From the IMG/VR virus record IMGVR_UViG_2690316068_000002: DNA of 64,000 nt. One strand, 5' to 3'. This DNA is from a virus. Taxonomy: Duplodnaviria > Heunggongvirae > Uroviricota > Caudoviricetes. Every line of letters starts with the position of its first letter. Positions within the stretch are counted from its first letter, which is position 1. A program made the position numbers and the translations under genes. Below the pieces are notes generated by a model that saw only the letters and a program-made list of their open reading frames with translations, searched no databases and was not told the DNA's origin. Positions 1,242 to 50,735 of the stretch are shown here, in pieces.

Positions 1242-1835
1242 CTAAGCAGCCTTCTTTGATGGTCTTTTTTTCCTGATCACATTCGCAGGATCATACCCTC
1301 CCAGACTTTTCATGACGTCCAAAGGGATCTTGCTTATAGAGTGCCCAGCGTCCTGACAGAATCCTCGAAAAACAACGAGCATACTGCCACCGGGGTTGAT
1401 GTTTACTTCTACCTGACCCAAATTGACGTCAGGCTCGACAAACGCTACGCGGCCACCAGACAGAATAATCGTCTCATTCGCATACTCTGTTGCACGCTCA
1501 TACCACTTTGTATCGAGGGATTGAGGAATTAGCATCACTGTTGTAACTCCGCGAGCCTGCTCACGTATAGCAGCATCAATCCAGGGGGAGATTTTGGAGT
1601 AGGGTGGATTGAGGAAGGCAATTGTACCTGGCTGTCCCCATTCAGATTTCAAAGCATCACGCTCAATGCCTATGAAATTAGGCAGCTTTGCGTTGTCCTT
1701 GTTGCAGGCAACGTCAACATCAAATGTCACTCCAAGATAACGTTGAATGGCAGAAAACAGCCAATCAGGTGTTCTCCAGAGGTCACGAAGAGAGTTGTCG
1801 CGCTTTCGCTGTTTGATTTTTTCGGCTGCAATCAT
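1242..1835 (-). CDS. DNA N6-adenine methyltransferase (phage Dam-like)
   Basis: FLNPPYS motif (NPPY/DPPY catalytic motif IV of N6-adenine MTases); 197 aa. Confidence 0.7.
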   Translation of the reverse strand: MIAAEKIKQRKRDNSLRDLWRTPDWLFSAIQRYLGVTFDVDVACNKDNAKLPNFIGIERDALKSEWGQPGTIAFLNPPYSKISPWIDAAIREQARGVTTVMLIPQSLDTKWYERATEYANETIILSGGRVAFVEPDVNLGQVEVNINPGGSMLVVFRGFCQDAGHSISKIPLDVMKSLGGYDPANVIRKKRPSKKAA

Positions 1836-3552: not shown

Positions 3553-3972
3553 TTACAACTTCTTAGCGCCCTTAAGTAGTGCGCTACGTACAAATTGAGC
3601 CGCTTTTTTCAAAGTTTCTTCACTGGTTTCACAGACAATCGGATCTTTCCACTTACCTGACGCAGTGTTGAGAATATTGATTTGGTTGCTATCCAGACAA
3701 ACAGAGATATAAAGCACCGTGCCACCAGCCAGCATCAAATGCATAGGAAACAGAGGCTTTTTACTGTCTTCACTGAACTGAGACATGGCGATGTTAATGG
3801 CTTCACCTACTTGTGCGCCAACAAGCCCTTGCGCAATTTCGAATACGGTACGAATAGCCAGACGAGCCTCTCGATCGCTCATAAGCGACCGGGAATGTTC
3901 GTCCGCTACACGAATCAAAGCCTCTGTTGTTTTCCGATCCAGTTCATCTTCAAGTAACATTTCACTAAACAT
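3553..3972 (-). CDS. hypothetical protein
   Basis: 139 aa ORF in operon context. Confidence 0.5.
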   Translation of the reverse strand: MFSEMLLEDELDRKTTEALIRVADEHSRSLMSDREARLAIRTVFEIAQGLVGAQVGEAINIAMSQFSEDSKKPLFPMHLMLAGGTVLYISVCLDSNQINILNTASGKWKDPIVCETSEETLKKAAQFVRSALLKGAKKL

Positions 3973-4033: not shown

Positions 4034-4678
4034 CTAATGAACGGTTACTCGGCCACAGAACCGGTTTTCTATCTTTTCTACAGCGTTATCTAGCATTCTC
4101 ATCACTGATCTGGCTCTTGCTTCAACCGTGCGATATCGGTTGGAAACGACGAAGGTTTGCAGATCTCCCCTTTGCGGATGCAGGTGAATTTTTGTCAGTT
4201 CCCCGCACATCAACGCATCAATACGAGCGACATACAGACGGTCTAATGATGCTCGTTGTGATCGCAAGTAATCTCGCTCTGAGAGAGCGACCCCCGGGCG
4301 TAGGCCAGCAATGGCGTTAAAGTTTGAAATAGCAGTTTTGTGGCAAAACTTTTCGATATCGAGGGCTAACTCAATACACCGATCTTCATTTGTATGGCCA
4401 ACCAAATCCAACGTGTAGGCCATAACATCAGCAGGTGTGCGATCGATAACAAAGCCTTCAACACCACGTGTAAGTAGCTCTATATGCTTTGCTATTTCCA
4501 TTTGAATCTGAAGCCGCTCATATAGAGGCATAGACTCACCTACTCGAACACCGAGGCGGCTCATCAAACTTCCGACACCAGCATCCACGTAAGGGATTCC
4601 GTAATGTTTGTCGATATATTTAGCCAGGGTTGTTTTCCCACTGCCCTGAGCACCAGTGATCCCAATCCGGTAATCCAT
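4034..4678 (-). CDS. P-loop nucleotide kinase, putative deoxynucleoside monophosphate kinase
   Basis: Walker A GITGAQGSGKTTLAKY at N-terminus; sits in nucleotide-metabolism cluster next to DHFR/ThyA. Confidence 0.55.
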   Translation of the reverse strand: MDYRIGITGAQGSGKTTLAKYIDKHYGIPYVDAGVGSLMSRLGVRVGESMPLYERLQIQMEIAKHIELLTRGVEGFVIDRTPADVMAYTLDLVGHTNEDRCIELALDIEKFCHKTAISNFNAIAGLRPGVALSERDYLRSQRASLDRLYVARIDALMCGELTKIHLHPQRGDLQTFVVSNRYRTVEARARSVMRMLDNAVEKIENRFCGRVTVH

Positions 4679-17239: not shown

Positions 17240-17884
17240 TTAAAACGTCTCAGTGGGCTTTTTACGCGCTGCGTTTATGCTTATGACGCCAGCTTTTGGA
17301 CGTGGGTCAACAAGGTTAAGCTCTTCTTCACTGTGGTATTCGAGGTCGAACTCACGTTTTACATGTCTGATGTAGATTGCGGTGAGCAGGCTATCTTTGG
17401 TCAGAAAGTGTCCGTAGGATTTGCGGATCACTTCTTCTACCTTCTCGATTTTCTCACCACCCATACAGAGATGATTAAACCGGCTGTGTTTCCGCAACAT
17501 TTCGTCTACTGGGCCTGAGTAAACCTTGTCTACTTTCCCAAAACGGATGATTTTCCCTGTGTCTGCGGATACGAGGCAAATCAGCTTGTCTGGTGATAAA
17601 CGATCTCGCCACGTCACACCTGAACGGAGTGTGTTGAAGTAGGGAGCATCCAATCCGATGATCGGTTTACGAAATGCGAGTAATGGAACGTACCTGATGC
17701 AACTGTTTAAATGAAAATTCACACCAGCCTTATCAAGTTTAATTCTGGTTTCGTAGATCGGGCACTTCGCCGCTATACCGCAGATGTCACAAAGCAACTT
17801 CTGCTTATTCAGGTTGGAATTCGATTCGATAGTGTAGGAGCCGTCTTCAAGACGACGAACCCAGCGCGTGCGTTTTAGATCCAT
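17240..17884 (-). CDS. hypothetical protein
   Basis: 214 aa ORF divergent from the replicon. Confidence 0.5.
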   Translation of the reverse strand: MDLKRTRWVRRLEDGSYTIESNSNLNKQKLLCDICGIAAKCPIYETRIKLDKAGVNFHLNSCIRYVPLLAFRKPIIGLDAPYFNTLRSGVTWRDRLSPDKLICLVSADTGKIIRFGKVDKVYSGPVDEMLRKHSRFNHLCMGGEKIEKVEEVIRKSYGHFLTKDSLLTAIYIRHVKREFDLEYHSEEELNLVDPRPKAGVISINAARKKPTETF

Positions 17885-17971
17885 ATGTCATTTTTCTGTG
17901 ATTGTTAGCCGAGGCAACGATAACCCACCAGGTGCGCCGAAGGTAGTAAATGCCTGTTTTAATTATTCACA

Positions 17972-18044
17972 TTATCCACAGGATAGATCCTAATAAAGAG
18001 ATCCATAGATAGATCCTTGTATAGATCAAATAAGATCCCCGATC
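17972..18044. promoter_or_regulatory. origin-associated DnaA box plus GATC cluster
   Basis: TTATCCACA (17972-17980) matches DnaA box consensus; six GATC sites at about 17986, 18000, 18012, 18024, 18034, 18041. Confidence 0.6.
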
Positions 18045-18084
18045 GCTGTAAGCCGCGCCACGACTGGTCTGAAGCCATGTTCAT

Positions 18085-18186
18085 GTATGCTGTCAGCGGT
18101 AATTGATAGTCTGTCAGCGGTTCACCGTATGCTGCCAACTGTTTTTGGTATTCTGTCAGCGGCAAATCAAGTATGCTGTCAGCGGT
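18085..18186. repeat. iteron array upstream of repA (5 copies)
   Basis: GTATGCTGTCAGCGGT-like 16-mers at about 18085, 18107, 18127 (degenerate), 18148, 18171. Confidence 0.8.
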
Positions 18187-18206
18187 TGAATGACAAAGGT
18201 GTCCAC

Positions 18207-19301
18207 ATGTCCACAAAAAATAAAAAAGGTAAAAATAACAAAGAAGTAGAAGATAACATCGACAACTTTGAAGAAGGTTCCCTTGAATTGTACACAGGGG
18301 AACTTGTCCCTAATAGCAACAATACAGTCCAACCAATTGCGTTGATGCGACTGGGGTTGTTCGTCCCCACGCTTAAGGGAACAAAATACAGTAAACGTAA
18401 CAAGCCAAATGAGATCGATGCTTCAAAGGAGCTTGTCCAGCTCGAAGTAGCCCGTTCTGAAGGCTATTCCGATATCAAGATAACCGGCCCTCGCCTGGAC
18501 ATGGATCATGATTTCAAAACGTGGGTGGGCGTTGTGCGTTCGCTGGCAGAATACGGCGAACCTAATGGTCGTGTCGAGTTAAGCATCACGAAATTTGCGA
18601 AGTTTTGTGGCTATCCATCGTCACAGATCCGCAAAACACTCCGCGACCGGCTTACAAACAGTCTTTTGAAGATCATGCGTACAACTCTGTCTTTCCAGAG
18701 AACGTATGAAGAAAAGAACGTCGACGGCTCTAACAAGATCTCGCTTCTGATGGTGCACCTCATCAATAGCGTGGACTACAACGAGCAGAAAGATACGGTG
18801 GTGTTCTATGCAGAACCGAAGCTGGCCGAACTATATCGCTTTGACCATAAGGTTCTTTTGCAGTTAAAGGTTATCAATAAGCTACCACGCAAAGAAACAG
18901 CACAGGCTCTGTACACCTTCATCGAAAGTCTTCCAACCAAGCCTGCGCCGGTATCGCTTGCTCGATTGCGTGCGCGACTCAATTTGAGTAGCAGGAATGT
19001 CAGCTCGCAGAATCAGACTATACGTAACGGCTTAAAAGCTCTCCAAGATTTGGGCTATCTCGAATACAGCGAGATTAAGCGTGGGCGGTCGATCTATATC
19101 CAGATTCACAGCCGCAATCCAAAACTCAAAGTCGCACCGCCAAAACCTGAAGACATCGAACCCAAAAAACCAGATGAGAAAGCTGGGGAAATTGATGCCA
19201 AACAGAACATTATCAACAAGATAACCGAACTTTCGCAGAATTTGACGCCTGAAAATATCAAGATGATTGAGATCCTTTCCAATAGTCTCAAACTGCTTTG
19301 A
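18207..19301 (+). CDS. repA: plasmid-type replication initiator (RepA-like)
   Basis: ORF 18087..19301 trimmed to ATG at 18207 (AAAGG RBS; longer ORF would run through the iterons); assignment rests on flanking iterons, DnaA box and GATC cluster, not on recognised protein motifs. Confidence 0.6.
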   Translation: MSTKNKKGKNNKEVEDNIDNFEEGSLELYTGELVPNSNNTVQPIALMRLGLFVPTLKGTKYSKRNKPNEIDASKELVQLEVARSEGYSDIKITGPRLDMDHDFKTWVGVVRSLAEYGEPNGRVELSITKFAKFCGYPSSQIRKTLRDRLTNSLLKIMRTTLSFQRTYEEKNVDGSNKISLLMVHLINSVDYNEQKDTVVFYAEPKLAELYRFDHKVLLQLKVINKLPRKETAQALYTFIESLPTKPAPVSLARLRARLNLSSRNVSSQNQTIRNGLKALQDLGYLEYSEIKRGRSIYIQIHSRNPKLKVAPPKPEDIEPKKPDEKAGEIDAKQNIINKITELSQNLTPENIKMIEILSNSLKLL

Positions 19302-19418
19302 TATGCTGTCAGCGGTGAAATGTATGCTATCAGCGGCTATTTTTCTGAAAAGTATGCTGTGAACGGTTAAAGATATGCTACCAGCGGTATAGTGAGATAA
19401 ACGTATGCTGTGAGCGGT
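19301..19418. repeat. iteron array downstream of repA, cluster 1 (5 copies)
   Basis: 16-mers (G/A)TATGCT(G/A)(T/C)(C/G)A(G/A)CGG(T/C) at about 19301, 19322, 19342, 19373, 19403. Confidence 0.8.
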
Positions 19419-19577
19419 AAATCATCTATCACCACTCAATGCTCTGGCATACCTCCCCAGTGGTTACTAACCTCGAAGAGTGCATTCCATATAGGTTTGC
19501 GCTCACTAACATTCTATTGCCGTTGCGCTGATTGCTTGTAGTGAAAGGCATTTATTGCCTGCTGCTCCCTGATAGAA

Positions 19578-19832
19578 CGTATGCTGTCAGCGGTGTTTTA
19601 TTGAGGAATTTTTGTTTGGATATGCTATCAGCGGTAATTAATGGTATATGTCAGACCTTCGTATGCTGCCAGCGGTAATTTTGTTCTGGTTATACCCATA
19701 CCGGTACACATTATTCATGCAATGTCTTAAGTATGCTGTCAGCGGTAAAAAATCGAGTAAAGTATGCTGTGAGCGGTGAGATAAACTCTCGATATGCTAT
19801 CAGCGGTAATTGATTGTGTATGCTGTCAGCGG
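19578..19832. repeat. iteron array downstream of repA, cluster 2 (7 copies)
   Basis: Same 16-mer family at about 19578, 19619, 19660, 19730, 19761, 19791, 19817. Confidence 0.8.
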
Positions 19833-19845
19833 TGACGACTATGAA

Positions 19846-19867
19846 ATATGACTGCGGCACGTGCCGC
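19846..19867. repeat. perfect 22-bp palindrome GACTGCGGCACGTGCCGCAGTC
   Basis: Seen directly; sits at end of iteron field between convergent units; hairpin or protein-binding site. Confidence 0.6.
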
Positions 19868-19880
19868 AGTCAGTTTGCAT

Positions 19881-20093
19881 TTAGTGTATTTTCTTTAACA
19901 GACCCCAAAGTGTTCCGGCTTTTGTAGTCAGTTTTCCTGTTTCTGGATCGTACATACGCCATTCACGCCGCTGGTGGACGATATACCCATCTTCACGTTC
20001 CAGACGCTCAAGAATGCCAGGCTGCTTGAAACCCTTAGCACGCCAGTAGCCGCTTGTTTTCTCGATTTCCAGACCTGCCAGTGTTAATGCCAT
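19881..20093 (-). CDS. hypothetical protein
   Basis: 70 aa ORF. Confidence 0.4.
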   Translation of the reverse strand: MALTLAGLEIEKTSGYWRAKGFKQPGILERLEREDGYIVHQRREWRMYDPETGKLTTKAGTLWGLLKKIH

Positions 20094-20428
20094 TATCCAA
20101 CCTCCTTGCAGTCATCGAAAAGGTAGCTTTGCTGAGAAGCGTGAACGCCATAGAAGCCCTTGTATTTGTTGTATACGAAGTGGTCTTCTCCTACGCCGGT
20201 TAATTTGCCATTACGGTTTGTGAGATATGGGGATGACAATACTCGATCGTCACGCACTACATAGAACTGGTCGCCGCTGTCTACGACCATCGCGCCATAT
20301 GGTGCTTTTATGACGTCGGTAAAAGCGCCATTCTTAATGTCGGCTACAGACATTTCACACTGATAAACAGTGGTGTCGGCCACAACGATCGAAGAAAGGA
20401 ACAACAGAGCGAATGGGATGGCCTTCAT
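20093..20428 (-). CDS. hypothetical secreted protein
   Basis: N-terminal signal peptide MKAIPFALLFLSSIVVA. Confidence 0.5.
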   Translation of the reverse strand: MKAIPFALLFLSSIVVADTTVYQCEMSVADIKNGAFTDVIKAPYGAMVVDSGDQFYVVRDDRVLSSPYLTNRNGKLTGVGEDHFVYNKYKGFYGVHASQQSYLFDDCKEVG

Positions 20429-22618: not shown

Positions 22619-23692
22619 TTACTCTTCTACTGACTCGGTGGGGTTGTCTTTTGCTCTTCGGTCGTCGATTGCCTGCAAAGCCGCAATGATTTCAGCCAGT
22701 GGCTTCTCCCGATACATCTCGACGATCTGCGATTTGGTGTATTTCTTGTCACCAATTTCAACTCGCCCGCTGGCGTTCTTTGGCAGGTATCCTTCTTCCA
22801 GCATGTACTCGACGAGCGATTCGATAACGTCGAGGCCACGAGTAGGATCGAAGTAGAATTTCCAGGTGCATTTGCCATACGGTGGTGCAACTTTGTTTTT
22901 GATGCATTCTGCGCCTACGTCCTGGCCGATCTTCTCTTTACCATCCTTCATCACCGATGCACCAAGACGGATACGTACAGAAGCGTAGAACTTCGGTGAA
23001 TCTCCACCTGGCGACGTAGTAGGGTCGCCAAACATTACACCGATTTTTGTGCGAACCTGATTCAAGAAGATGATGCAGGCGTTGTATTTGCGTGCCCACA
23101 AAGCCAGAGTAGGGAAGTTCGCACTCGTCGCACGAGCCAGTGCCGTATTGTCGTTCATGTTTAGCTGATCTTTGTCTTTGGCAGTGCCTTCAGCCATCTT
23201 TTCGAACTTCTCGGCTTTGGAGTTCGGAACCATAGACGCAAGAGAGTCAGCCACGATACAGATTGGTGCTGATTCGGGGATAAGCTCTTCATCACGAACC
23301 AATTTAAGTATTGTGCCGATCAACTCTACAGAGTCTTCGAAGGTATCTGGCTGCTTGTATACCCACTGACCGTCATCCTCATCTGCGTTCAGGCCATTGG
23401 CGACAGCCAGGCCAACGTCAAAACTGTTTTCATGATCGAGGAATACCGCCAGACCATCTTGTTTTTGAGCGGAGATCATCGCTGCTGTTGCAAGGAACGT
23501 TTTCCCTGCACTTGGAGGACCGAATACTTCGACGATACGACCACATGGGAAGCCGCCATCGTAACGACCAGAAATAGCTTTGTTTAACGGTGGAAAGCCT
23601 GTATCAATCCAATGAGTTACTTTCTGAATTTCGTCGTTGCTACCGATTTTCTTTTTCAGAGCAAGTGCCAGTGCGGATTTTCCTTTTGCCAT
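22619..23692 (-). CDS. recA: RecA-like recombinase
   Basis: Walker A GPPSAGKT; block LIFLNQVRTKIGVMFGDPTTSPGGDSPKFYASVRIRLG nearly collinear with E. coli RecA L2-loop region. Confidence 0.85.
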   Translation of the reverse strand: MAKGKSALALALKKKIGSNDEIQKVTHWIDTGFPPLNKAISGRYDGGFPCGRIVEVFGPPSAGKTFLATAAMISAQKQDGLAVFLDHENSFDVGLAVANGLNADEDDGQWVYKQPDTFEDSVELIGTILKLVRDEELIPESAPICIVADSLASMVPNSKAEKFEKMAEGTAKDKDQLNMNDNTALARATSANFPTLALWARKYNACIIFLNQVRTKIGVMFGDPTTSPGGDSPKFYASVRIRLGASVMKDGKEKIGQDVGAECIKNKVAPPYGKCTWKFYFDPTRGLDVIESLVEYMLEEGYLPKNASGRVEIGDKKYTKSQIVEMYREKPLAEIIAALQAIDDRRAKDNPTESVEE

Positions 23693-23694
23693 GA

Positions 23695-23967
23695 TCAGGC
23701 TCCTTTTGTTTCGTTGATTCGTTTTAAAGCGGCGGATTCATCGAATACAATCGCATCGTGGTTAAGGAGTCTGGATACACGAGCGAGGATTTTTACGACC
23801 TGCTCGCTGACTAATCCAAACTCGCGATCTGTCGCTTTCATTCCGGCAGCGCCTAGAATTGACGGCAGTGCGATGACAGCGTACTCACCGTGATAAAAGA
23901 CAATCTCTTTTGCCAGTTGGGCAGGGGTGGTTGTAGCGCCATTGATAATCGATTTAAGCATTAGCAA
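23695..23967 (-). CDS. hypothetical protein
   Basis: 90 aa ORF. Confidence 0.4.
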   Translation of the reverse strand: MLMLKSIINGATTTPAQLAKEIVFYHGEYAVIALPSILGAAGMKATDREFGLVSEQVVKILARVSRLLNHDAIVFDESAALKRINETKGA

Positions 23968-24905
23968 TACCTTTCGAATGGAAGAACAAACACTTCAAGG
24001 TCTTCAAGGAACGAACGGAAATTCAGCTCGTAGCACAGTTGCTCGAATGCTTTCACGTCACGATTGCCTTTGATTGTTTCGATTTCGGTAGGCGGAAACT
24101 TCGTCTCAATCAGGTTCATTAGCGTGATGTTTCTCTTGAACGCTTCGAGCATTCGACAGCCTGTTTTCTCGTTGAAGGCATTCTTCGCTAGTTTGTTGAA
24201 GGCGGTCTTATGACGCCCTTTATTAACCACGATTGAGCCGTCGTTGATGCCGCGTACCATCGTTGCGACACTTCCCCATTCATGCAGCAGCTCTTTCGCA
24301 CCGCCAGCACCAATGCCACCAACACCGCTAATGTTGTCCGAGTTATCGCCTTGTAATGCTTTTGCTTCCAAAAATGCGCGAGGCGTGGCGAATCCTGTCA
24401 GCTCCGCAAATTGCTCAAAATTAACCTGCTTGTTTTTGGCGTCTTCACGCAGGCTTACCCAGCTTACGTTTTCACGAACTAACTGAAGCCAGTCGCTATC
24501 GCCTGTTAACAGATAGATGTGTTCAACGGTTGGCTGCGGTGCCATGCGGGATACCAGCAGCCCGGCCAGATCATCCGCTTCTGCATCTTTTGCAATGAGT
24601 TGGGTAACTCCAAGCGCGGTCATCATTTTGAGGATGTATGGCTTCTGGATAGCAAAGCCTTCCTTCATCTTTTTCATATCAGGATCGTCGTCGCGATTTG
24701 CTTTGTAGTCCGGGTAAAAGTCGCGACGCTTGTCACTAAATCCATCCCAAAGAATCATAGGTCGGGCATGGAGGATGGAGGCATAACGACGGACGTTCTT
24801 AACAAAGCCGAAAGCAGCCTGTACTTCCATTTCGCCGTTGTGCAATTTGTCAGATTGTTGATGGTAATAACCCAGGCTATTGCCATCTACGAAGAGATAA
24901 TTCAC
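23961..24905 (-). CDS. flap endonuclease / 5'-3' exonuclease (FEN, T5 D15-like)
   Basis: VDGNSLGYY N-terminal motif and GVGGIGAGGAKEL helix-hairpin-helix motif; ORF begins with GTG at 24956, but GTG at 24905 with GGAAGGAA RBS leaves the upstream terminator outside the CDS. Confidence 0.75.
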   Translation of the reverse strand: MNYLFVDGNSLGYYHQQSDKLHNGEMEVQAAFGFVKNVRRYASILHARPMILWDGFSDKRRDFYPDYKANRDDDPDMKKMKEGFAIQKPYILKMMTALGVTQLIAKDAEADDLAGLLVSRMAPQPTVEHIYLLTGDSDWLQLVRENVSWVSLREDAKNKQVNFEQFAELTGFATPRAFLEAKALQGDNSDNISGVGGIGAGGAKELLHEWGSVATMVRGINDGSIVVNKGRHKTAFNKLAKNAFNEKTGCRMLEAFKRNITLMNLIETKFPPTEIETIKGNRDVKAFEQLCYELNFRSFLEDLEVFVLPFERYC

Positions 24906-24924
24906 CGGTACATTCCTTCCAAAA

Positions 24925-24950
24925 AGTAAGGCGTCCGTAGACGCCTTACT
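24925..24950 (-). terminator. rho-independent terminator (AGGCGTC...GACGCCT family)
   Basis: TAAGGCGTC-tacg-GACGCCTTAC followed on minus strand by TTTTTGG. Confidence 0.55.
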
Positions 24951-24965
24951 GGTCACGTAATGGGA

Positions 24966-25994
24966 TTACAGAGAGTCCAGCTCTCTCAGTAGGTCATCCA
25001 GACCTTCATCTTCCGTCGCAGATGCGGTTGCTACAGATGTCGCTGCGACTGCTTCAGACTCTTTGACTGATACGGCAACGGCAGCGGAACTTGCCTCTGG
25101 TTTAAATTCAGTTTCAACGGCACGGAGGATTTCTTCATCAACCAGACTGGTTGGTTCAGAAGCCGGTGTGTGCGCGGTTGCTACAGCCGTCGCTCCTTCT
25201 GTATGACCAGTGACAGAGCCAAATCCAGGTAGTGCCGCAGCCGATGTTTTCGCGGTTGAGGAAATTGCTGGTGCAGATGCTGCGGCAGTTGGTGCAGCGA
25301 TGCCAATCAGACGACCCATAGTGCGAACTGTCGACAGAAGACGAGTTTCATCAGCCTGATTTGCGTATGCGATCAGATCATGCTGGGTGTTCCAGAATTT
25401 ATCTTCGATATCGCCTTTGTAGACTTTACGCTTAGGCGAGACGTCATATTTGGTATCGCGACCAGAGCCAGTACGTTTAATCAGGAATGCGTAGCCTTCC
25501 TCTTTGCTCAGTGGATTGCCGATATCATCAGCGATGTCTTCGGTGATTGCTTTGCAGATATCATCGAATACAGTAGACGGCAGCTCGATTAACTGGCATT
25601 TCTCAGCATCTGCGAAATCCTCACGAGCAGAAAGAATGCCGTTGACCAGGTAGCGAGGAGTGGCACGCATTTGACCGATGCGTTCTTCCATTGCTTTGTT
25701 ACCCTTGTGACGAGCGCGACCTTCCATAACCATTTCGCATAGCTGACAAGCGCGACCGTGAGTATGTTGCTCACAAATATAAGCGTTGGTTGCTTCTTTA
25801 CCTTCCTCGTTCTGATACTTAACGTAGTGCATACCGAAAGTCTGGAAGAACTTACCGTTTGGGTCGTCTTTATTCGGGAAGATGCGGATATAGTTGACGC
25901 CGTCTTTTAAGCGAGTCAGATCAACGTTGTTGCCACGTTTGGCGGCAATGTCTTCACGAGTTTTGTTAAGCAAATCAAGTAATGTCTTAGACAT
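24966..25994 (-). CDS. putative ssDNA-binding protein (gp32-like)
   Basis: Cys/His cluster CEQHTHGRACQLCE, Ala/Ser/Thr-rich linker and acidic C-terminal tail EDEGLDDLLRELDSL typical of SSBs. Confidence 0.5.
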   Translation of the reverse strand: MSKTLLDLLNKTREDIAAKRGNNVDLTRLKDGVNYIRIFPNKDDPNGKFFQTFGMHYVKYQNEEGKEATNAYICEQHTHGRACQLCEMVMEGRARHKGNKAMEERIGQMRATPRYLVNGILSAREDFADAEKCQLIELPSTVFDDICKAITEDIADDIGNPLSKEEGYAFLIKRTGSGRDTKYDVSPKRKVYKGDIEDKFWNTQHDLIAYANQADETRLLSTVRTMGRLIGIAAPTAAASAPAISSTAKTSAAALPGFGSVTGHTEGATAVATAHTPASEPTSLVDEEILRAVETEFKPEASSAAVAVSVKESEAVAATSVATASATEDEGLDDLLRELDSL

Positions 25995-28494: not shown

Positions 28495-31400
28495 TTACTT
28501 ATTTATTGTCTCCGCGATATCAGCCAGAATGGCCTCCAGTCGCTCTCCTTCTTCCGGTCGGAAGTACAGGATATTCGGGTTAAATCCGTAGAAGACGGTT
28601 GCATCAAGCTCTGGGAAGTACTCCTTACGACCAATCAGATCTGATGGTTTACTCTTATTGTTAAATAGTGCGGTTGAACGACTACCACACGTCAAAATGT
28701 AGGTCGGACGCACCAGATTGATCTCTTCACGCATAAAGTCGGTGAACTGGCCGATCTCGTCTTTGGTGTAGTCTTTTTCTTTGTCTTTAACCTTCTTGCA
28801 AACGCCTGTGACATAGAGATCGCCCATGCGTAAATCTCCAGCCGTCAATAGCTTGGCCTTAAAGTCGTCGTATCCGTTCTCCATGAAGTAACCGGTTCGA
28901 GCATCATTGCCGTTCGCATTGTCCAGAATGATCATGATTTTCGGCTTAATACCAATGTTGGGGCGGATTAGTTCATCACCTAAGCCCATTTCAGCCGCCA
29001 TCCGTGTCATGAGCACGTTAATCTCAGCCGAACGTTTGGGGTTCATCTCAAACGGACGTGAGGCTTTAACTGCGTCTATGACAAGGTTTCCCATCAATTC
29101 AGCCTGGTCGCGTAGGCGCTCTGGATCAGTTGCTGGCAGACTACCTGGCTCGATGGATGCAAACGCCCCTACTTTTTGCAGCGATTCGCGCACTCGACTA
29201 TTACAGGCACGTTTCTCGACAGCTTCTTCGAATTGCGCCAGTGACTCGAATTTGCCGCCAACTTTTTCTCGCGCTCTCATGATGGCTTGGCAGCCATTCT
29301 CAGAACACCCCTTCACAGCAGAGAAGGGCGCATACAGCACCTGGCTGCCATCTTCAAGCGTGCGGATCTCGATTCGGTTAGATGACACGTTAACGTCTGG
29401 TGGCAATACGCGAATACCATAGGTCAGCGCATCTTTAACCAGCCCCTGGTGTTTATCTTCGCCAAGAATAGTGAGAGCAGCAGCGAAAAACTCTGCGGGA
29501 TAATGAGTTTTCAACCACATAGATTGATAACTGATTAAGGAGTAGGCAACAGAGTGTGATTTATTGAACTGGTAGGCACCATTTTTTTCGAATGCGGTCC
29601 AGATCTCCTTCGCTTTCATCTCTGATAGCCCTGGATGTGACGCTGTAACGCGTACTGCGTTTATAGGTAGTTTTGCGCCGTGCTCAAGTGCCTCTTCGAC
29701 AGTTTTCAGAGTTCCGTCTTCGCATTTAAAATGTTCCGCACGGTGAATGCGCTGTGTAGTGCCATCTTCCAGCTCAACGTCTATCCAGCCAGCTTGAGCC
29801 TGAACGATGAACTTCTCGCCCATGCTCTTCATTTTTTCCATGTTCTTCTTACCGATTGCGGAACGCACACCGTCAGCTTCAGCCATTGTGAAGCCGGCAA
29901 GCAATCGAGTCGCGTTCATCGTCTGTTCCTGATAGAGAATCACGCCATTTGTTTCCGCGGTAAGTTCATCAAGAACGGGGTGTAATGATTCCGGCGTCAT
30001 AAAGCCTTTGGCGACAGAAACATAGTCGTCCAACATGCCGGATTGGATCGGGCCAGGTCGGAAGAGTGCGGTCGTGGCGACAACGGTTTTAAAGCTCATT
30101 GGCTCAATGCCACCGCCTAGATCTTTAAGCAGCTTGCGCATGGGGCCGGACTCCAGCTGGAATACGCCCTGTGTATACCCTGCAGCAAAACCATCCAGCA
30201 CCTTGCGATCTTCAAGAGAAATGGCATCAAGATTGATATCTTCACCTGTGTTCTCTTTTATGTAGCGTTTTGCACTATCGAGCAAATCGAGAGTTGCCAG
30301 GCCAAGCACGTCCAGCTTAATTAGGCCCATAGCCTCGCAGTAACGCTTGTCAAATGCGATACAACGCGCGTCACCACGGCGCTCAACCGGTGTACGTTCT
30401 GTCAGAGGAACACCTGCTACAATCATCCCTGCCGCATGTCTACCAAAGCCACGCATAAGGCTTTGTAACTTGCAGGCTGCATTGAATGCATCAGGATATT
30501 TTGTTGCGTATTTGTCGAGACTTGCCAGTTGTTCGCGCAGCTCTTCCAATGGAAGGCTATCATCCTCGACGTTCTTCAGTTCTTTTGATACCGCCATATC
30601 TGCGGACTCCACACCATAAATACGAGCGGTGTCACGTAGTGCAGAGGCTGCGCCCAGGTAGGTGAAGTTCGGAATGCCTGCAACGTAATCTTCGCCGTAG
30701 CGTTCATTCAGATACTCGATCACCTCATGGCGACGTGCCTGGCTGAAGTCCAAGTCCGCATCCGGCAAGTCGAGACGCTCAGGGTTGATGAAACGCTCAA
30801 ACAGAAGACCGTGACGGATTGGGTCGACGTTGGTTATGCCTATGCACCACGCCACCAGAGAACCGGCAGAGGAACCACGACCAGGCCCGACAGGAATGCC
30901 AGTTTCACGGCTGTGATTCATCAGATCGCGTACCATCAGGAAGTAACCACAAAATCCCAGGCGAGTCAGCGTGTTCATTTCGTACTTTAGCCGCTCAACA
31001 TAAACCCTGTTCTCAGAAGCAGGTGGTGTGTATCCAAACTCTTTTGTGGTAAGACGTTTACGCAGCCCTGCAACAGCCAGTTTCATCAGCGTTGCAGGTT
31101 CGTCGTCTGCCATCTTGGGCAGTGCTGGTGGCAATTCATGCCAGCGCCATGTGCAGGCATCGATAATGGAGTCCTGCGTTGTTGAGGCCATTGCAGCTGT
31201 TACCGGCACATCCATGCGAACGGAGAAGGCTTTAAGCGCCTCAAGGAGATGGCGACGACCATTGATGGCGTTATCTCGCTGGTGGGGGATACGCAGACGA
31301 TGCGGCTGGTCGATTTTTATGTTGTTCGTAACCATGTGCGCAATGTCTTTAATGTCTGCATCGTCGATCGATTCGTAATAAGCGGGATAGAACGCTACTG

Positions 31401-32013
31401 GCTCTATTTTCAGTGCGCTGGCTACTTTCATCGCTCGGACGTTAATCTGGTCGTAGAATGGGGTAGGGTGCGGATAAACCACGCTATAGAAGTTGTCTTT
31501 CCCGCCCGCTGTAATCAGTGAGCTTATGATTTTTGCAAAATCGTTGCGTTGGAACACGCTACCGATGTCGGAAGTGAGCAGGATGATGTTGCCTTTGGCA
31601 TATGTAGAAACCAACTGTTCGAGCGAGAGACGCGGTACAAAGTAGAACTGTTCTCGTGTGTTGGCCACCGTCATTAGTTCGCAGATGTCGCGATATCCTT
31701 GCTCATTTTTAATTAGAGCGGTAAACGAGTAGTTACGTCCCCGCTCTAATGATTCCATACATCTCATAGATTCTTTAGCAAGTTTAGCCCGGTGCTCGTA
31801 TGTGGGATCATCAACGATATTTAGTTTCACACCACAAATAACCGCCATGTCGTCACCAGCGGCACGTTGTAGTGGAATAACGCTCGCAATATTCATGCTA
31901 TCTGCTGAAATTACAGCGGTGTAGCCAGCTTCTCTGGCAATCTTCACCGCGTTTTCTGCTTTTAGAGCCGACTCCCCAAGTGAGAAGTCAGTTCGAACCA
32001 TCAGTGCCTTCAT
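28495..32013 (-). CDS. dnaE: DNA polymerase III alpha-like replicative polymerase (DnaE family)
   Basis: 1172 aa; block GYFLMVRDLMNHSRETGIPVGPGRGSSAGSLVAWCIGITNVDPIRHGLLFERFINPER matches the DnaE palm-domain signature; N-terminal PHP-like region. Confidence 0.85.
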   Translation of the reverse strand: MKALMVRTDFSLGESALKAENAVKIAREAGYTAVISADSMNIASVIPLQRAAGDDMAVICGVKLNIVDDPTYEHRAKLAKESMRCMESLERGRNYSFTALIKNEQGYRDICELMTVANTREQFYFVPRLSLEQLVSTYAKGNIILLTSDIGSVFQRNDFAKIISSLITAGGKDNFYSVVYPHPTPFYDQINVRAMKVASALKIEPVAFYPAYYESIDDADIKDIAHMVTNNIKIDQPHRLRIPHQRDNAINGRRHLLEALKAFSVRMDVPVTAAMASTTQDSIIDACTWRWHELPPALPKMADDEPATLMKLAVAGLRKRLTTKEFGYTPPASENRVYVERLKYEMNTLTRLGFCGYFLMVRDLMNHSRETGIPVGPGRGSSAGSLVAWCIGITNVDPIRHGLLFERFINPERLDLPDADLDFSQARRHEVIEYLNERYGEDYVAGIPNFTYLGAASALRDTARIYGVESADMAVSKELKNVEDDSLPLEELREQLASLDKYATKYPDAFNAACKLQSLMRGFGRHAAGMIVAGVPLTERTPVERRGDARCIAFDKRYCEAMGLIKLDVLGLATLDLLDSAKRYIKENTGEDINLDAISLEDRKVLDGFAAGYTQGVFQLESGPMRKLLKDLGGGIEPMSFKTVVATTALFRPGPIQSGMLDDYVSVAKGFMTPESLHPVLDELTAETNGVILYQEQTMNATRLLAGFTMAEADGVRSAIGKKNMEKMKSMGEKFIVQAQAGWIDVELEDGTTQRIHRAEHFKCEDGTLKTVEEALEHGAKLPINAVRVTASHPGLSEMKAKEIWTAFEKNGAYQFNKSHSVAYSLISYQSMWLKTHYPAEFFAAALTILGEDKHQGLVKDALTYGIRVLPPDVNVSSNRIEIRTLEDGSQVLYAPFSAVKGCSENGCQAIMRAREKVGGKFESLAQFEEAVEKRACNSRVRESLQKVGAFASIEPGSLPATDPERLRDQAELMGNLVIDAVKASRPFEMNPKRSAEINVLMTRMAAEMGLGDELIRPNIGIKPKIMIILDNANGNDARTGYFMENGYDDFKAKLLTAGDLRMGDLYVTGVCKKVKDKEKDYTKDEIGQFTDFMREEINLVRPTYILTCGSRSTALFNNKSKPSDLIGRKEYFPELDATVFYGFNPNILYFRPEEGERLEAILADIAETINK

Positions 32014-39881: not shown

Positions 39882-39968
39882 TGGCGGAGAGTAATGGAAT
39901 CGAACCATCATCGCTTGCGCAATGGGACGGTTTTCAAGACCGCTTGAGCACCATGCTCCCTACTCTCC
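39882..39968 (-). tRNA. tRNA-Ser (anticodon UGA), type II with long variable arm
   Basis: Minus-strand GGAGAGT...CTTGAAA...GGTTCGATTCC...ACTCTCCGCCA; 7-bp acceptor stem, T-loop TTCGATT, anticodon loop CUUGAAA; D-arm atypical. Confidence 0.6.
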
Positions 39969-40181
39969 AGTTGTTGTGGTGCCGGGGGCTTCCCGGTGTC
40001 CTTTGGCTGGTTATCCACCGTGGACGGAGCCAATAGTCATCACAAAGGATCAATATAACCATTTCCCCGCGTGCGCTTAGCCGCATTCACCACAACGAAA
40101 AGAGCACTGTATGACGTTTGCACGGACTTACGCTTAAAACAGGGCAGTCTCGGCGGTTCTCAATGCTCTTTCCTGTTGTGT

Positions 40182-40257
40182 TGGTGCCGGTTAACGGATT
40201 CGAACCGCCGACCATTCGCTTACAAGGCGACTGCTCTACCAACTGAGCTAAACCGGC
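40182..40257 (-). tRNA. tRNA-Thr (anticodon UGU)
   Basis: GCCGGTTTAGCTCAGTTGGTAGAGCAGTCGCCTTGTAAGCGAATGGTCGGCGGTTCGAATCCGTTAACCGGCACCA; perfect acceptor stem; canonical D and T loops. Confidence 0.8.
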
Positions 40258-40261
40258 AATT

Positions 40262-40348
40262 TGGTGGGGAGTGATGGAGTCGAACCACCCGAGTCGCAAT
40301 GACAGTAGATTTACAGTCTACACCGCTACCTCTACGGACTAACTCCCC
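40262..40348 (-). tRNA. tRNA-Tyr (anticodon GUA), long variable arm
   Basis: GGGGAGT...GTAGACTGTAAATCTAC...GGTTCGACTCC...ACTCCCCACCA; anticodon loop CUGUAAA. Confidence 0.7.
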
Positions 40349-40353
40349 TAAAT

Positions 40354-40428
40354 TGGCGATGGTGGGTGGATTCGAACCACCGACCAGTTGGTTAACAGCC
40401 AACTGCTCTACCGCTGAGCTACACCATC
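40354..40428 (-). tRNA. tRNA-Asn (anticodon GUU)
   Basis: GATGGTGTAGCTCAGCGGTAGAGCAGTTGGCTGTTAACCAACTGGTCGGTGGTTCGAATCCACCCACCATCGCCA; perfect 7-bp acceptor stem. Confidence 0.8.
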
Positions 40429-48312: not shown

Positions 48313-49116
48313 CTAGTATCCAAGAAAATCAGTATCTTTCTCTAATCTTATTTTTTCCAGCTTATACGATCCTGGAGGGCACTTCATTTTGTAGATTTCG
48401 ATACCTGAATCAAATAGTTGATGAACATAATTTTGAAGTTGACTGCTAGCCTTACAACCTATTGTTATTTCCTTAATTAAGGATTTATCAAATAATTTCA
48501 CGCCACAATTCTCGGTTACGATTCTAACCTCCTCTTCATATTCCCAGACATCGCTTTTATTTAGGCAAAGAGCCGCTGCAATCTCTTTATCTGAGTCGGT
48601 AAAAAAATTTACAACCGGAACATCAGAGGAATATTTGACCTCACCGCGAACAAAAAAACCATCATCAAACGCATTTATAAAACCATCATCAAATCCGATG
48701 CAAAAACCAGAGTGAGAATGCGCATAATGCGACCACATAAGATAATTATCTGGTCTTTTTGTCAAACAAATAACTCCCCGACACTGCAGAAAAGTTGTTC
48801 TAATCATATAGTTATCAAAACTGCGACTATGTTCTGTTTGACTCAATAACCAGCGTTCAAATTCATCATTGTGATGATTAGGCCAAAGCTCAAAAAATCT
48901 TTTCTTAATGGCGTCTATATCAGCATCATAATCAAAATTAACTTTAAACTCGGCAGGATCGTTGAAATCATTCGGACGAGTTGCTCGAATTTTCCCATCT
49001 TCTAAGTAATACTTTAAATACTTTATTGTGTCTTCCGGGACGCTACTTCCAACATATTTGTAAAGCATAAATATACCTTTTAAGAGAAGGCGTCTAATCA
49101 CGCCTTCTCTTATCAA
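48313..49116 (-). CDS. hypothetical protein, DUF2971-like pattern, low GC
   Basis: 267 aa; YLKYYL...NDFNDPAEF...W-HYA-H-G-C-GF resembles DUF2971 as I recall it; AT-rich codon usage. Confidence 0.45.
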   Translation of the reverse strand: MIREGVIRRLLLKGIFMLYKYVGSSVPEDTIKYLKYYLEDGKIRATRPNDFNDPAEFKVNFDYDADIDAIKKRFFELWPNHHNDEFERWLLSQTEHSRSFDNYMIRTTFLQCRGVICLTKRPDNYLMWSHYAHSHSGFCIGFDDGFINAFDDGFFVRGEVKYSSDVPVVNFFTDSDKEIAAALCLNKSDVWEYEEEVRIVTENCGVKLFDKSLIKEITIGCKASSQLQNYVHQLFDSGIEIYKMKCPPGSYKLEKIRLEKDTDFLGY

Positions 49117-49472
49117 CCTTTCTTCATCAACTCGCGTTTGATTTCATCGGTACGCATCGTTACGTCGGCAGCTGTGATCGCCTCGTTAAGTTTCACGATG
49201 TCCTCGATTTCCTGCGGTGACTTCTCTGCCAGATGGAAAATGGCTGCTCGAATCACGTCAGAACGAGTGAACTTCTCGAAGCGAGGGATGAACTTCATCA
49301 TCTCCAGCAGTTCGAAGTATTCGTCCTCCAGTGACATTGTGCGGCTTTTAATTTTCTCTTTGCCACGAGTCGGGCGTCCCTGTGGTCTGACTGGTTGGCG
49401 CAAAGGAGTTGTGTTCTTAGCCGGTGCATCAGGCTCTTTGCGCTTTGCTAGGTCACCCATTTTCATGGACAT
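49113..49472 (-). CDS. putative partition protein (ParA partner, ParG/ParB-like)
   Basis: 119 aa basic N-terminus; translationally coupled downstream of ParA-like gene. Confidence 0.45.
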   Translation of the reverse strand: MSMKMGDLAKRKEPDAPAKNTTPLRQPVRPQGRPTRGKEKIKSRTMSLEDEYFELLEMMKFIPRFEKFTRSDVIRAAIFHLAEKSPQEIEDIVKLNEAITAADVTMRTDEIKRELMKKG

Positions 49473-50140
49473 TATTCTTCTTCCTCCAGACTCAACAGAT
49501 AATCTACAAATTCTTCAAACTCGGCTTCCGCCTTTTTGTCGCGCTCGCTACCGGTCATTTCAAAGATAGAACGACCAGACTCTTCCGCATCATCATAGAC
49601 GTTGCGGTTATATAGATTGACTGGCGCAGACTCGATTCCAAACGTCTCAACAATCTCTTTAGCCGCCAGAATGCGAGACACTTGTGATGGCAAAGCCGGG
49701 CACTGGTTCATGACCGCGCGGACCTTCACTTTATCGTTTACATTGCGAACATTGTCGATAATAGGATCGATGTCACGTAAAGATTTCAAATCACGACGCT
49801 TAGGACGCAGCGGGATAATGATAACGTCAGCCATCAGCATCGCTTGTCGCTGAATTTCGGAGTCGAAGCCACCAGCATCTACCACTACAAACTCAGCTCT
49901 ACCCTGAAGCGATTTTAGGTGCTTAATGATGTCATCCTGAACGTATGCAAAAGGAATCAGCTCAAGGTCTTCGTTCTGTCGACGGTCTTCACACCAGCTC
50001 GTTGTCGTGCGCTGAATATCTATATCGGTAATATAAACCTTCTTCTTCTTTTTGACTTTCAGGCAAACGGCAATTTGCTGGGCAACGGTGGATTTGCCAG
50101 GCCCGCCCTTTGTGCCGCCAACCACAAAGATCTTGGTCAT
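49472..50140 (-). CDS. parA: ParA/ParF-type partition ATPase
   Basis: Deviant Walker A TKGGPGKST (KGGxGK[ST]T with signature lysine); VVVDAGGFD; 222 aa. Confidence 0.7.
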   Translation of the reverse strand: MTKIFVVGGTKGGPGKSTVAQQIAVCLKVKKKKKVYITDIDIQRTTTSWCEDRRQNEDLELIPFAYVQDDIIKHLKSLQGRAEFVVVDAGGFDSEIQRQAMLMADVIIIPLRPKRRDLKSLRDIDPIIDNVRNVNDKVKVRAVMNQCPALPSQVSRILAAKEIVETFGIESAPVNLYNRNVYDDAEESGRSIFEMTGSERDKKAEAEFEEFVDYLLSLEEEE

Positions 50141-50458: not shown

Positions 50459-50728
50459 ATGTCAGCACTAAAAAAGCAGCGCATCGATTTGAGATTAACC
50501 GATGACGATAAAAGCATCATCGAGGAAGCTGCCGCAATGTCTAACCAGAGCATTACTCAGTTTATGGTTAGCAGTGCATCTGAACGTGCCGTGAAAGTTA
50601 TAGAGCAACACCGTAGACTAGTTCTGAATGAAGAATCCTGGAATCTGGTTATGGACGCTATAAGCAATCCTCCGGCACCGAACGACAAGCTGAAACGAGC
50701 TGCTGATCGTCTGAAAAGCATGGAGTAG
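50459..50728 (+). CDS. DUF1778-family antitoxin (TacA/KacA-like, RHH)
   Basis: ORF 50420..50728 trimmed to ATG for MSALKKQRIDLRLTDDDKSIIEEAA (AGGAGG RBS), a typical DUF1778 antitoxin N-terminus. Confidence 0.75.
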   Translation: MSALKKQRIDLRLTDDDKSIIEEAAAMSNQSITQFMVSSASERAVKVIEQHRRLVLNEESWNLVMDAISNPPAPNDKLKRAADRLKSME

Positions 50729-50735
50729 TTTACTC

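Follow-up and report, generated by a model that had tools for sequence, protein, structure and literature searches.

Introduction

The plasmid replicon of bacteriophage P1 has its initiator gene, repA, between the iterons of the origin and a downstream iteron array, incA. RepFIB replicons are of similar design, i.e., repA is flanked by iteron arrays. Phage-plasmids of the SSU5 group have been typed as IncFIB (PMC7969092; bioRxiv 10.1101/2025.09.12.675607), and in Klebsiella IncpKPHS1 relatives four iterons were noted downstream of repA (PMC6735626). Plasmids of the IncFIB(H89-PhagePlasmid) type coexist with IncFIB(AP001918) plasmids within single strains (PMC12838234). We found no base-level dissection of the origin of the H89-type replicon in published descriptions, the nearest being that of the Klebsiella relatives (PMC6735626). 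A preprint on heteroresistance, which deals with copy-number mutants of a phage-plasmid RepA (10.64898/2026.08.19.745698), concerns an unrelated, CopA-controlled family.

Here we describe a replicon in a 64-kb stretch of tailed-phage DNA (64,000 nucleotides, below called the window). An earlier note on this DNA, made from the sequence alone, had proposed a P1-like plasmid replicon inside a phage genome. We conclude, with a probability of about 90%, that the unit is the replicon by which an SSU5-like E. coli phage-plasmid is maintained as a plasmid, i.e., an iteron-controlled theta replicon homologous to P1 oriR-repA-incA and to RepFIB. We infer this function from homology and distribution.

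Results

The origin region

Upstream of repA we find the following features.

17963–17980, plus strand: two tandem DnaA boxes, TTATTCACA (8/9) then TTATCCACA (9/9), at the outer end of the origin
17982–18044, no strand assigned: AT-rich segment with six GATC (Dam) sites, in AGATCC-type heptamers and CGATCG
18045–18084, no strand assigned: GC-rich spacer GCCGCGCCACGACTGG (58% GC), separating the GATC segment from the iterons
18085–18186, plus strand: five origin iterons (incC equivalent), spaced by 21, 21, 21 and 23 bp, the third degenerate
18199–18215, plus strand: two overlapping DnaA-box-like sequences, GTGTCCACA and ATGTCCACA, each 7/9, spanning the repA start codon

A lone DnaA box is unremarkable in this DNA, as the window has 20 matches with at most one mismatch where 15 are expected. 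The two boxes at the origin match the tandem boxes of P1 oriR column for column, judged by the alignment and by the DnaA protein_bind feature of the P1 record, and tandem boxes are also present in related loci with RepA above 85% identity. The earlier note had described a single consensus box; this box is present at 17972–17980, but TTATTCACA, directly upstream at 17963–17971, had been overlooked. Its six GATC sites within about 60 bp were in turn all recovered, at 17986, 18000, 18012, 18024, 18034 and 18041. All of them fall within 59 bp, the second-best 60-bp stretch of the window has three sites, and none of 300 shuffles reached six. The segment has 32–33% GC, and its counterpart in the aligned P1 oriR carries five annotated Dam sites; relatives have six or seven GATC sites there. 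The segment is presumed to be the site of strand opening, methylation and SeqA control.

The GC-rich spacer is kept in the alignment with P1, Klebsiella, Cronobacter and plasmid pCFSAN004176P_01. Taken together, the left half of the origin, i.e., the DnaA boxes, the AGATCC heptamers, CGATCG and the GCCGCGCCACG spacer, is 67% identical to P1 oriR (NC_005856); the iteron half has 34–40% identity. At the place of the DnaA-box-like pair a Klebsiella relative has GTATCCACA (8/9), and P1 has CTATCCACA just 5' of repA. The pair may be the counterpart of the right-hand DnaA boxes of P1.

A consensus scan of 17850–20000 found no plus-strand sigma-70 promoter, also not among the origin iterons; inspected by eye, the spacers between these iterons offer weak −10 candidates only. 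An Rfam scan of 17700–20100 gave no match.

The initiator RepA

18207–19301, plus strand: repA, predicted to encode a 364-aa iteron-binding initiator of the P1/RepFIB family, with homology to P1 RepA and Rep3_N

The 364-aa reading frame stands as it had been given, and AAGG lies 7 nt 5' of its ATG. In RefSeq records repA is called from an ATG within iteron 1, which gives a product of 404 aa. In many public assemblies the sequence has been rotated to start exactly at the repA ATG of 18207.

Comparison of the product with the initiators of P1 and SSU5, for which homology had been anticipated, found both to be homologues. BLASTP aligned it with P1 RepA at 46% identity over 278 aa (P1 residues 20–284 of 286, E 3e-86), and its identity to SSU5 RepA is 49%. 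RepFIB initiators from at least 5,000 plasmids of E. coli and Klebsiella match residues 24–309 at about 50% identity. Pfam Rep3_N (PF01051) was found at residues 118–239 with 37.5 bits (cut-off 22.4, E 3.9e-9). Rep3_C (PF21205), the WH2 domain, was marginal (residues 251–296, E 0.13, below cut-off); P1 RepA itself also stays just under this cut-off, with E 5.7e-4. A sequence search of the PDB gave no match, and NCBIfam no family.

RepA is 78 aa longer than P1 RepA and has a basic stretch at the N terminus as well as a tail of about 55 aa at the C terminus. This tail is present in SSU5 RepA and absent from P1 RepA; RepFIB matches end near query residue 309, so that RepFIB initiators apparently lack it as well. 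It is conceivable, though unlikely, that the tail connects RepA with the helicase, primase or polymerase of the phage.

Iterons upstream and downstream of repA

We searched the whole window for GTATGCTGTCAGCGGT, allowing at most three mismatches, with shuffled sequences as controls. All 17 matches are on the plus strand and lie within 18085–19833, compared with 0.35 ± 0.63 matches (maximum 2) in the shuffled controls. Five of them are the origin iterons; the others follow repA in two clusters.

19301–19418, plus strand: downstream iteron cluster 1, five direct iterons spaced by 21, 30, 21 and 30 bp
19579–19833, plus strand: downstream iteron cluster 2, seven direct iterons spaced by 41, 41, 70, 31, 30 and 26 bp

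Both counts of the earlier note, five iterons ahead of the reading frame and 12 in two clusters behind its stop codon, are thereby borne out. Spacings are mostly near whole numbers of helical turns. The spacing pattern of the origin iterons is kept in relatives with 78–100% RepA identity, and the two-cluster downstream layout is kept as well, with a total of iterons there that varies from 8 to 12. Cluster 1 overlaps the repA stop codon by one base, the final one of the codon.

The claim that the layout matches that of P1 holds for the order of the elements, for RepA and for the origin; it fails for the iteron sequence, for the downstream array with its exclusively direct repeats and for the distant par genes. 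P1 shares the homologous full-length RepA, the tandem DnaA boxes, the GATC heptamer cluster (five sites there, six here) and the GC-rich spacer. It also has five origin iterons, spaced by 21, 21, 21 and 22 bp, and a downstream array that starts with the final base of the stop codon of repA. The 46% identity of RepA and the 67% identity of the left origin half hence support a P1-like plasmid replicon in this phage genome. In contrast, the iterons here have the core TATGCTGTCAGCGG and those of P1 have TGTGCTGGAGGG, and the 19-bp IncY iteron GATGTGTGCTGGAGGGAAA is not matched by the iterons of the window, as its core differs. A different incompatibility specificity is therefore expected. Whereas the 12 downstream iterons are all direct and form two clusters, the nine of P1 incA comprise three direct and six inverted copies. 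Furthermore, parAB abuts incA in P1; no P1-type parABS follows the downstream array here, and the sole ParA-type gene of the window, at 49472–50140, lies about 29 kb off and is small (222 aa). The carrier is an SSU5-like phage-plasmid rather than a P1-like one. Judged by its sequence, the replicon is of P1-like design without IncY specificity.

In phage-plasmids of the SSU5, pLF82 (Cyrano) and pHCM2 type, the replicon occupies the same slot in the gene order, between genes of 214 and 70 aa. The left half of the SSU5 origin is 67% identical to the one described here, and SSU5 has a second copy of this half and of its iteron set. Its iterons, AACCACTGTAGAGAG, are in practice unrelated to those of the window, its downstream iterons are inverted, and no SSU5-type iterons occur at the origin here. 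Given the 49% identity of RepA and this origin, we do not assign the replicon to the SSU5/pLF82 type.

A conserved element in the downstream array and a terminal palindrome

Two further features accompany the downstream iterons.

19452–19512, no strand assigned: conserved element CCTCCCCAGTGGTTACTAACC ... AGGTTTGCGCTCACTAAC, not of the replicon's own iteron type, an inverted look-alike of an SSU5-type iteron
19849–19872, no strand assigned: 24-bp palindrome/hairpin with a 10-bp stem, between the replicon and a converging minus-strand gene that ends at 19881

Of 80 related loci, 72 contain the exact 14-mer AGTGGTYACWAACC of the conserved element. So does SSU5, whose downstream array also holds a AGTGGTTAC(A/T)AACC element; the 14-mer is missing from P1. 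On the minus strand, and with a gap of 2 bp, the element agrees in 22 of 25 positions with an origin iteron of the SSU5 type. The best match in the window to a profile built from 22 SSU5 iterons is at 19458–19473, weak (E 0.7) and inverted. Ungapped SSU5-type iterons with at most four mismatches were found nowhere in the replicon, except for a chance overlap with a DnaA box. It seems doubtful that the element is more than a relic and has a regulatory function. If it works, the initiators of competing SSU5/pLF82-type phage-plasmids might use it as a decoy or pairing site; alternatively, a protein of the host or of the phage might bind it and so tie the control of plasmid copy number to the phage cycle.

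Other candidates for this element were rejected. A Tus/Ter site at 19459–19472 was considered since GTGGTTACTAA agrees at 9 of 11 positions with the Ter core, which we take to be GTTGTAACTAA. Both mismatches are in the conserved core, however, and the copy of the element in SSU5 diverges further from Ter. RNAalifold on four sequences of the conserved block predicted 10 pairs with one compensatory change at −6.7 kcal/mol, which is too slight to claim an RNA structure. The P1 par operator shows no resemblance to the block.

The palindrome that had been proposed to end the replicon is perfect over 22 bp (19850–19871), but the end that had been set for the replicon, 19867, cuts through it. It was flagged as terminator-like on both strands, and its folding energy is −20.5 kcal/mol (z = −3.9). 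Klebsiella and Cronobacter relatives lack it. In most close relatives it differs at the central base pair only, so that the 9-bp outer stem is kept. It is probably a two-way terminator hairpin rather than an element of the replicon.

Distribution and phage context

More than 100 public plasmids carry the replicon with an identity of at least 98%, and about 120 plasmid records encode a RepA that is 100% identical. Essentially the same sequence is typed as IncFIB(H89-PhagePlasmid)/rep_cluster_488, in pECOH89-like plasmids and also in the phages PhiR41_1 and CMS-2020a; the former name is the one under which PlasmidFinder users know it. Two plasmids of type rep_cluster_488, pG749_2 and pB20, are 99.8% and 99.3% identical to it, respectively. 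Identity to CP124485.1, a sequence named as highly similar to IncFIB(H89-PhagePlasmid)-typed plasmids and to pECOH89 (PMC12838234), is 98.9%. The replicon is thus already known, catalogued and common in E. coli.

Among 5,426 complete E. coli genomes, 120 contain the replicon, in 184 places that are all on plasmids and never chromosomal. This agrees with the view of the earlier note that the phage is maintained as a plasmid. PLSDB lists plasmids of 100–115 kb that are typed by rep_cluster_488 alone. In a decayed, IS-interrupted 63.8-kb derivative from E. albertii, with a shortened dnaE, it is the sole typed replicon. A related copy is found in the 34.7-kb plasmid pCFSAN004176P_01, with no phage genes in the region examined. 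Relatives in E. coli, Klebsiella and Cronobacter keep the whole architecture at 78–100% RepA identity.

The window itself is from an SSU5-group phage-plasmid, with tail genes, dnaE, nrdAB, a RecA-like gene, a DnaB-like helicase, a primase and a gp32-like gene. The downstream array is followed by minus-strand genes without family matches. Three accessory loci bear on plasmid maintenance or on methylation.

1242–1835, minus strand: Dam-family N6-adenine methyltransferase (PF05869, 5.4e-38; TIGR01712 of NCBIfam, 6e-33, over cut-off)
49113–50140, minus strand: 222-aa ParA-type ATPase (49472–50140), then a 119-aa partner gene
50459–51257, plus strand: toxin-antitoxin pair, with a TacA-like antitoxin at 50459–50728 (PF08681 TacA1, 5.7e-26) and a GNAT toxin at 50736–51257

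The methyltransferase is present where it had been claimed, on the minus strand, and belongs to the Dam family; P1 likewise encodes a Dam-family enzyme. The phage Dam is an accessory gene that could, as had been proposed, methylate the GATC cluster; it would not be required for the origin because the E. coli host has Dam. The ParA-type gene matches ParA_partition (1.9e-33, under the curated cut-off) and PHROG 164, ParA-like (4e-51), its 119-aa partner matches only an uncharacterised PHROG, and the two are likely a partition pair. GNAT domains were found in the acetyltransferase toxin gene. Partition and toxin-antitoxin pairs are hence both present as described, although not nearby, since they lie about 29–31 kb from the replicon.

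Discussion

The unit sits in the DNA-metabolism block of the phage, with dnaE, the DnaB-like helicase, the primase, nrdAB and the RecA-like and gp32-like genes, and its RepA has a tail that P1 RepA lacks and before which RepFIB matches stop, near residue 309. One could therefore argue that RepA and its iterons form mainly, or additionally, a lytic replication origin used together with the phage helicase, primase and polymerase. We consider this quite unlikely, as homologous replicons maintain ordinary plasmids (at least 5,000 with RepFIB, and pCFSAN004176P_01) and as the decayed derivative, in spite of its shortened dnaE and IS insertions, is still a plasmid with this replicon. Moreover, a downstream array that binds the initiator limits copy number in P1, the opposite of what lytic replication needs, and P1 uses a separate lytic replicon. 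A further question is whether the downstream clusters are a copy-control locus at all, or rather a second origin, a centromere-like site or functionless repeats. Their number, spacing and layout vary among relatives (4+4, 7+5, 5+7), and all repeats are direct, unlike in P1 incA, with a foreign conserved element among them. These alternatives nevertheless appear very unlikely, because downstream and origin iterons have one core and hence must bind the same predicted protein, and because the array begins on the stop codon as in P1 incA and was found in every relative examined. For a second origin, the clusters also lack the hallmarks, i.e., DnaA boxes and a GATC cluster.

In the GenBank record of Klebsiella phage pJN2-26, two equivalent 20-bp repeats are labeled attR and attL. 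That the repeats flanking the reading frame are attachment or recombination sites is yet hardly credible: there are 17 copies and not two, they are phased like the P1 iterons beside a P1 RepA homologue, and none of the 184 E. coli places is chromosomal. We judge the idea that the whole unit is an inactive relic no differently, in view of its strong conservation across genera.

For the plasmid-maintenance replicon, the steps of initiation and control can be drawn from P1 biology. By analogy, host DnaA would bind the tandem boxes at 17963–17980 and RepA monomers the five phased iterons at 18085–18186. Together they would open the AT-rich GATC segment, onto which the replisome, assumed to be that of the host, would be loaded; the presence of genes for a helicase, a primase and Pol III alpha on the element itself counts against this assumed dependence. 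As in P1, opening would need Dam methylation of the six GATC sites, and after firing their hemimethylation would lead to sequestration by SeqA and thus to fewer re-initiations. RepA on the origin iterons would also repress its own promoter. The 12 downstream iterons would titrate RepA and handcuff the origin iterons, which would keep the plasmid at about one to two copies per chromosome. The downstream array differs from P1 incA (12 iterons instead of nine, all direct, with a foreign element between them), so that the control logic may differ as well. P1 and SSU5 have iterons other than the TATGCTGTCAGCGGT found here, and the replicon is therefore expected to be compatible with both.

What we add to a known replicon is modest, i.e., a base-level origin map for the H89-type subtype. 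On this map the host-factor half of the origin is shared with P1 and SSU5, and divergence of the iterons has gone along with that of RepA. Two conserved but uncharacterised features also stand out, namely the RepA tail and the element in the downstream array. Typing of this replicon, as is already common practice, helps to track pECOH89-like phage-plasmids, some of which carry blaCTX-M-15. For the phage itself, the replicon explains its persistence as a plasmid and defines its incompatibility type.

RepA and the organization of the origin

Reading of window positions 17700-20200, combined with a search of the whole window, recovered every sequence element that an earlier note had listed for this replicon. 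Its finding was accurate and its interpretation right. The features discussed below are as follows.

Features of the replicon and of associated genes (window coordinates)
17963-17971, second DnaA box, 8/9 matches, directly before the consensus box
17972-17980, consensus DnaA box
18207-19301, + strand, repA open reading frame, 364 aa
19301-19418, + strand, downstream iteron cluster 1, five copies, directly after the open reading frame
19579-19833, + strand, downstream iteron cluster 2, seven copies, after a 160-bp gap
19850-19871, palindrome (24 bp at 19849-19872)
49472-50140, ParA-type gene, 222 aa
50459-51257, TacA/GNAT toxin-antitoxin pair

The repA product matches Pfam Rep3_N. Homology to the P1 and SSU5 initiators, named in the earlier note as a check, was found at 46% identity for P1 RepA (E 3e-86, the alignment spanning the whole of P1 RepA) and at 49% for RepA of Salmonella phage SSU5. 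A second comparison gave 47.9% for SSU5 and Cyrano, in agreement with the 48% similarity described for pECOH89 and pLF82 RepA (PMC3999498). RepFIB initiators, present in at least 5,000 plasmids, are about 50% identical, and their matches end at about residue 309. The C-terminal tail of about 55 aa (residues ~307-364, window 19126-19298) consists of a proline- and acid-rich linker and a conserved terminal helix, LTPENIKMIEILSNSLKLL; it is found in RepA of the SSU5 group with both iteron types, whereas P1 RepA is without it. RefSeq records place the RepA start farther upstream, at an ATG within the first of the origin iterons, which gives 404 aa (window 18087-18206). The 364-aa form is more plausible, because the start at 18207 is preceded by a ribosome-binding sequence, relatives keep this ATG, and a large number of public assemblies have been rotated so that exactly this base comes first. 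Both PHROG 775 and the RefSeq record of P1 (NC_005856.1) tag the P1 RepA family as 'replication helicase'. This tag is misleading, since RepA is an origin-binding initiator without a helicase domain match; the only Pfam matches of P1 RepA were Rep3_N and Rep3_C.

The 16-mer GTATGCTGTCAGCGGT was matched 17 times (up to 3 mismatches) in the whole window, compared with 0.35 matches expected by chance, and all 17 iterons lie on the + strand, confined to 18085-19833. As had been proposed, 5 + 12 iterons flank the open reading frame: five upstream, spaced by 21, 21, 21 and 23 bp, and 5 + 7 after it. Most of the spacings, those of 21, 30-31 and 41 bp, come near whole helical turns. An ATG is present in each iteron. 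The cluster of six GATC sites, likewise described before, occupies 59 bp (17986-18044); elsewhere in the window a 60-bp stretch holds at most 3, and 6 were reached in none of 300 shuffles. GC content is 32-33% in the GATC segment and 58% in the spacer that comes after it. The earlier note had recognized the consensus DnaA box but overlooked the box adjoining it.

Comparison with related origins

The likeness to P1 (annotated oriR-repA-incA, NC_005856) goes beyond the layout already remarked on, for RepA and the host-factor half of the origin are homologous to those of P1. This half, with DnaA boxes, AGATCC heptamers, CGATCG site and GC-rich spacer, shows 67% nucleotide identity to both P1 and SSU5, whereas identity falls to 34-40% in the iteron half. 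This makes the origin modular: its host-factor part is conserved and its initiator-binding part has diverged together with RepA. P1 shares the number (five) and phasing of origin iterons, and in both replicons the first downstream iteron overlaps the stop codon by a single base, its own first and the codon's last. In contrast, the incA iterons of P1 are 3 direct and 6 inverted, whereas the downstream iterons here are all direct. Moreover, parAB abuts incA in P1; the ParA-type and toxin-antitoxin genes that had been called nearby in the window are real, but lie ~29-31 kb off. SSU5 has its replicon in the same gene order and uses a different iteron. Its origin left half and iteron set are duplicated in tandem upstream of repA (2250-2500 and 2600-2900 of the SSU5 locus), and the GATC cluster of the second copy is decayed.

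Viral contigs supplied 80 related loci, in which RepA identity ranged from 52% to 100%. All relatives examined with 78-100% RepA identity kept the iteron core, the 21/21/21/23 origin spacing, 6 or 7 GATC sites and DnaA boxes, the latter in tandem above 85% identity, and downstream of repA they carried two clusters with 8-12 direct iterons in total. Among the 80 loci, the window-type iteron was absent from members with 52-58% RepA identity. In Klebsiella phage pJN2-26 (MZ779062.1), GenBank labels two repA-flanking iterons attR and attL (2378-2397 and 3648-3667 of the locus); these are almost certainly misannotated replicon iterons.

A conserved block and a palindrome

Downstream clusters 1 and 2 are separated by a gap that contains a block (window 19452-19512, CCTCCCCAGTGGTTACTAACC ... 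AGGTTTGCGCTCACTAAC) other than the window-type iteron. Its 14-mer core, AGTGGTTACTAACC, occurs once in each of 72 of these 80 loci; SSU5 has it at the corresponding position, and P1 lacks it. A second, degenerate copy of the core follows 36 bp downstream. Read on the minus strand, the block agrees with the first origin iteron of SSU5 at 22/25 positions given a 2-bp gap, and it was the best window-wide match of an SSU5-iteron profile, at an E of 0.7 only. Its sequence is similar to that of an SSU5-type iteron in inverted orientation, with a gap of 2 bp. In Cronobacter pGK1025B_1, SSU5-type iterons form a clearer inverted pair (4384-4429 of the locus), just after the downstream array of its H89-type replicon, i.e., the IncFIB(H89-PhagePlasmid) replicon of pECOH89-like phage-plasmids. 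This pair hints that the two replicon types underwent exchange in the past or engage in cross-talk. We considered and rejected three candidates for the block: a Tus site, an RNA structure and a par operator.

The palindrome said to close the replicon exists, although the end coordinate given for it fell short. Its behavior is that of a terminator hairpin rather than of a replicon component, because in most close relatives it changes only at the central base pair and because it is missing from the Klebsiella and Cronobacter relatives. A converging minus-strand gene has its stop 9 bp away from the palindrome, the folding energy of which is -20.5 kcal/mol.

Distribution of the replicon

The window is an SSU5-group phage-plasmid, encoding tail genes, dnaE, a DnaB-like helicase, primase, nrdAB, thymidylate synthase, and RecA-like and gp32-like proteins. 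The replicon region shares 99% identity with Escherichia phages PhiR41_1 and CMS-2020a, and the replicon 99.8% with E. coli plasmid pG749_2; at least 95% identity was found in 122 plasmid records. It occurs in 120 of 5,426 complete E. coli genomes, where 184 of 184 places are on plasmids and none on chromosomes, which agrees with the plasmid maintenance proposed for the phage. PLSDB types these plasmids as rep_cluster_488 by this replicon alone. SSU5-group elements have been typed IncFIB (PMC7969092; bioRxiv 10.1101/2025.09.12.675607). CP124485.1, which matches the replicon at 98.9%, was named highly similar to pECOH89 and to IncFIB(H89-PhagePlasmid)-typed plasmids, and H89-type and classical IncFIB plasmids were found together in single strains (PMC12838234).

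Next to the plasmid replicon, the phage has genes for much of its own DNA replication and recombination machinery: a RecA-like protein, a 5'-3' exonuclease, a single-strand binding protein of gp32 type, and Pol III alpha (window 22619-25994 and 28495-32013). Genes for a helicase and a primase are found at ~44.7-47.3 kb. Four tRNA genes (Ser-tga, Thr-tgt, Tyr-gta, Asn-gtt) cluster on the minus strand at 39882-40428; the pECOH89 announcement reported Thr and Asn only.

E. albertii p2014C-4015-1 (63.8 kb) is a decayed phage-plasmid derivative: IS911 and ISEc20 have inserted, dnaE is shortened and hdeAB has been acquired. It persists with the H89-type replicon as its sole typed replicon. E. coli pCFSAN004176P_01 (34.7 kb), also typed IncFIA, has a relative of this replicon with 81% nucleotide identity, the same iterons and a truncated downstream array. 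This relative adjoins parA (401 aa), parB and ccdAB, and the 13-kb region examined has no annotated phage genes.

Proposed mechanism

Initiator and origin homology, the presence and phasing of binding sites and the plasmid-only location are shown here; we infer the other steps from P1, drawing on its replication literature. DnaA on the tandem boxes and RepA monomers on the five iterons would jointly open the AT-rich GATC segment. Opening would require Dam methylation, and hemimethylation would permit sequestration after firing. The N6-adenine methyltransferase noticed earlier at 1242-1835 is a Dam-family enzyme with putative GATC specificity; host Dam would be sufficient without it. RepA on the origin iterons may repress its own promoter, the least supported step because a promoter scan found no consensus promoter among the iterons. 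The downstream array would titrate RepA and pair with the origin, leading to low copy number. The iterons are distinct from those of P1 and of SSU5, so compatibility of the replicon with either one is expected.

This replicon is already catalogued and widespread. The present analysis adds two small, unexplained conserved features and maps the origin of the subtype in detail.
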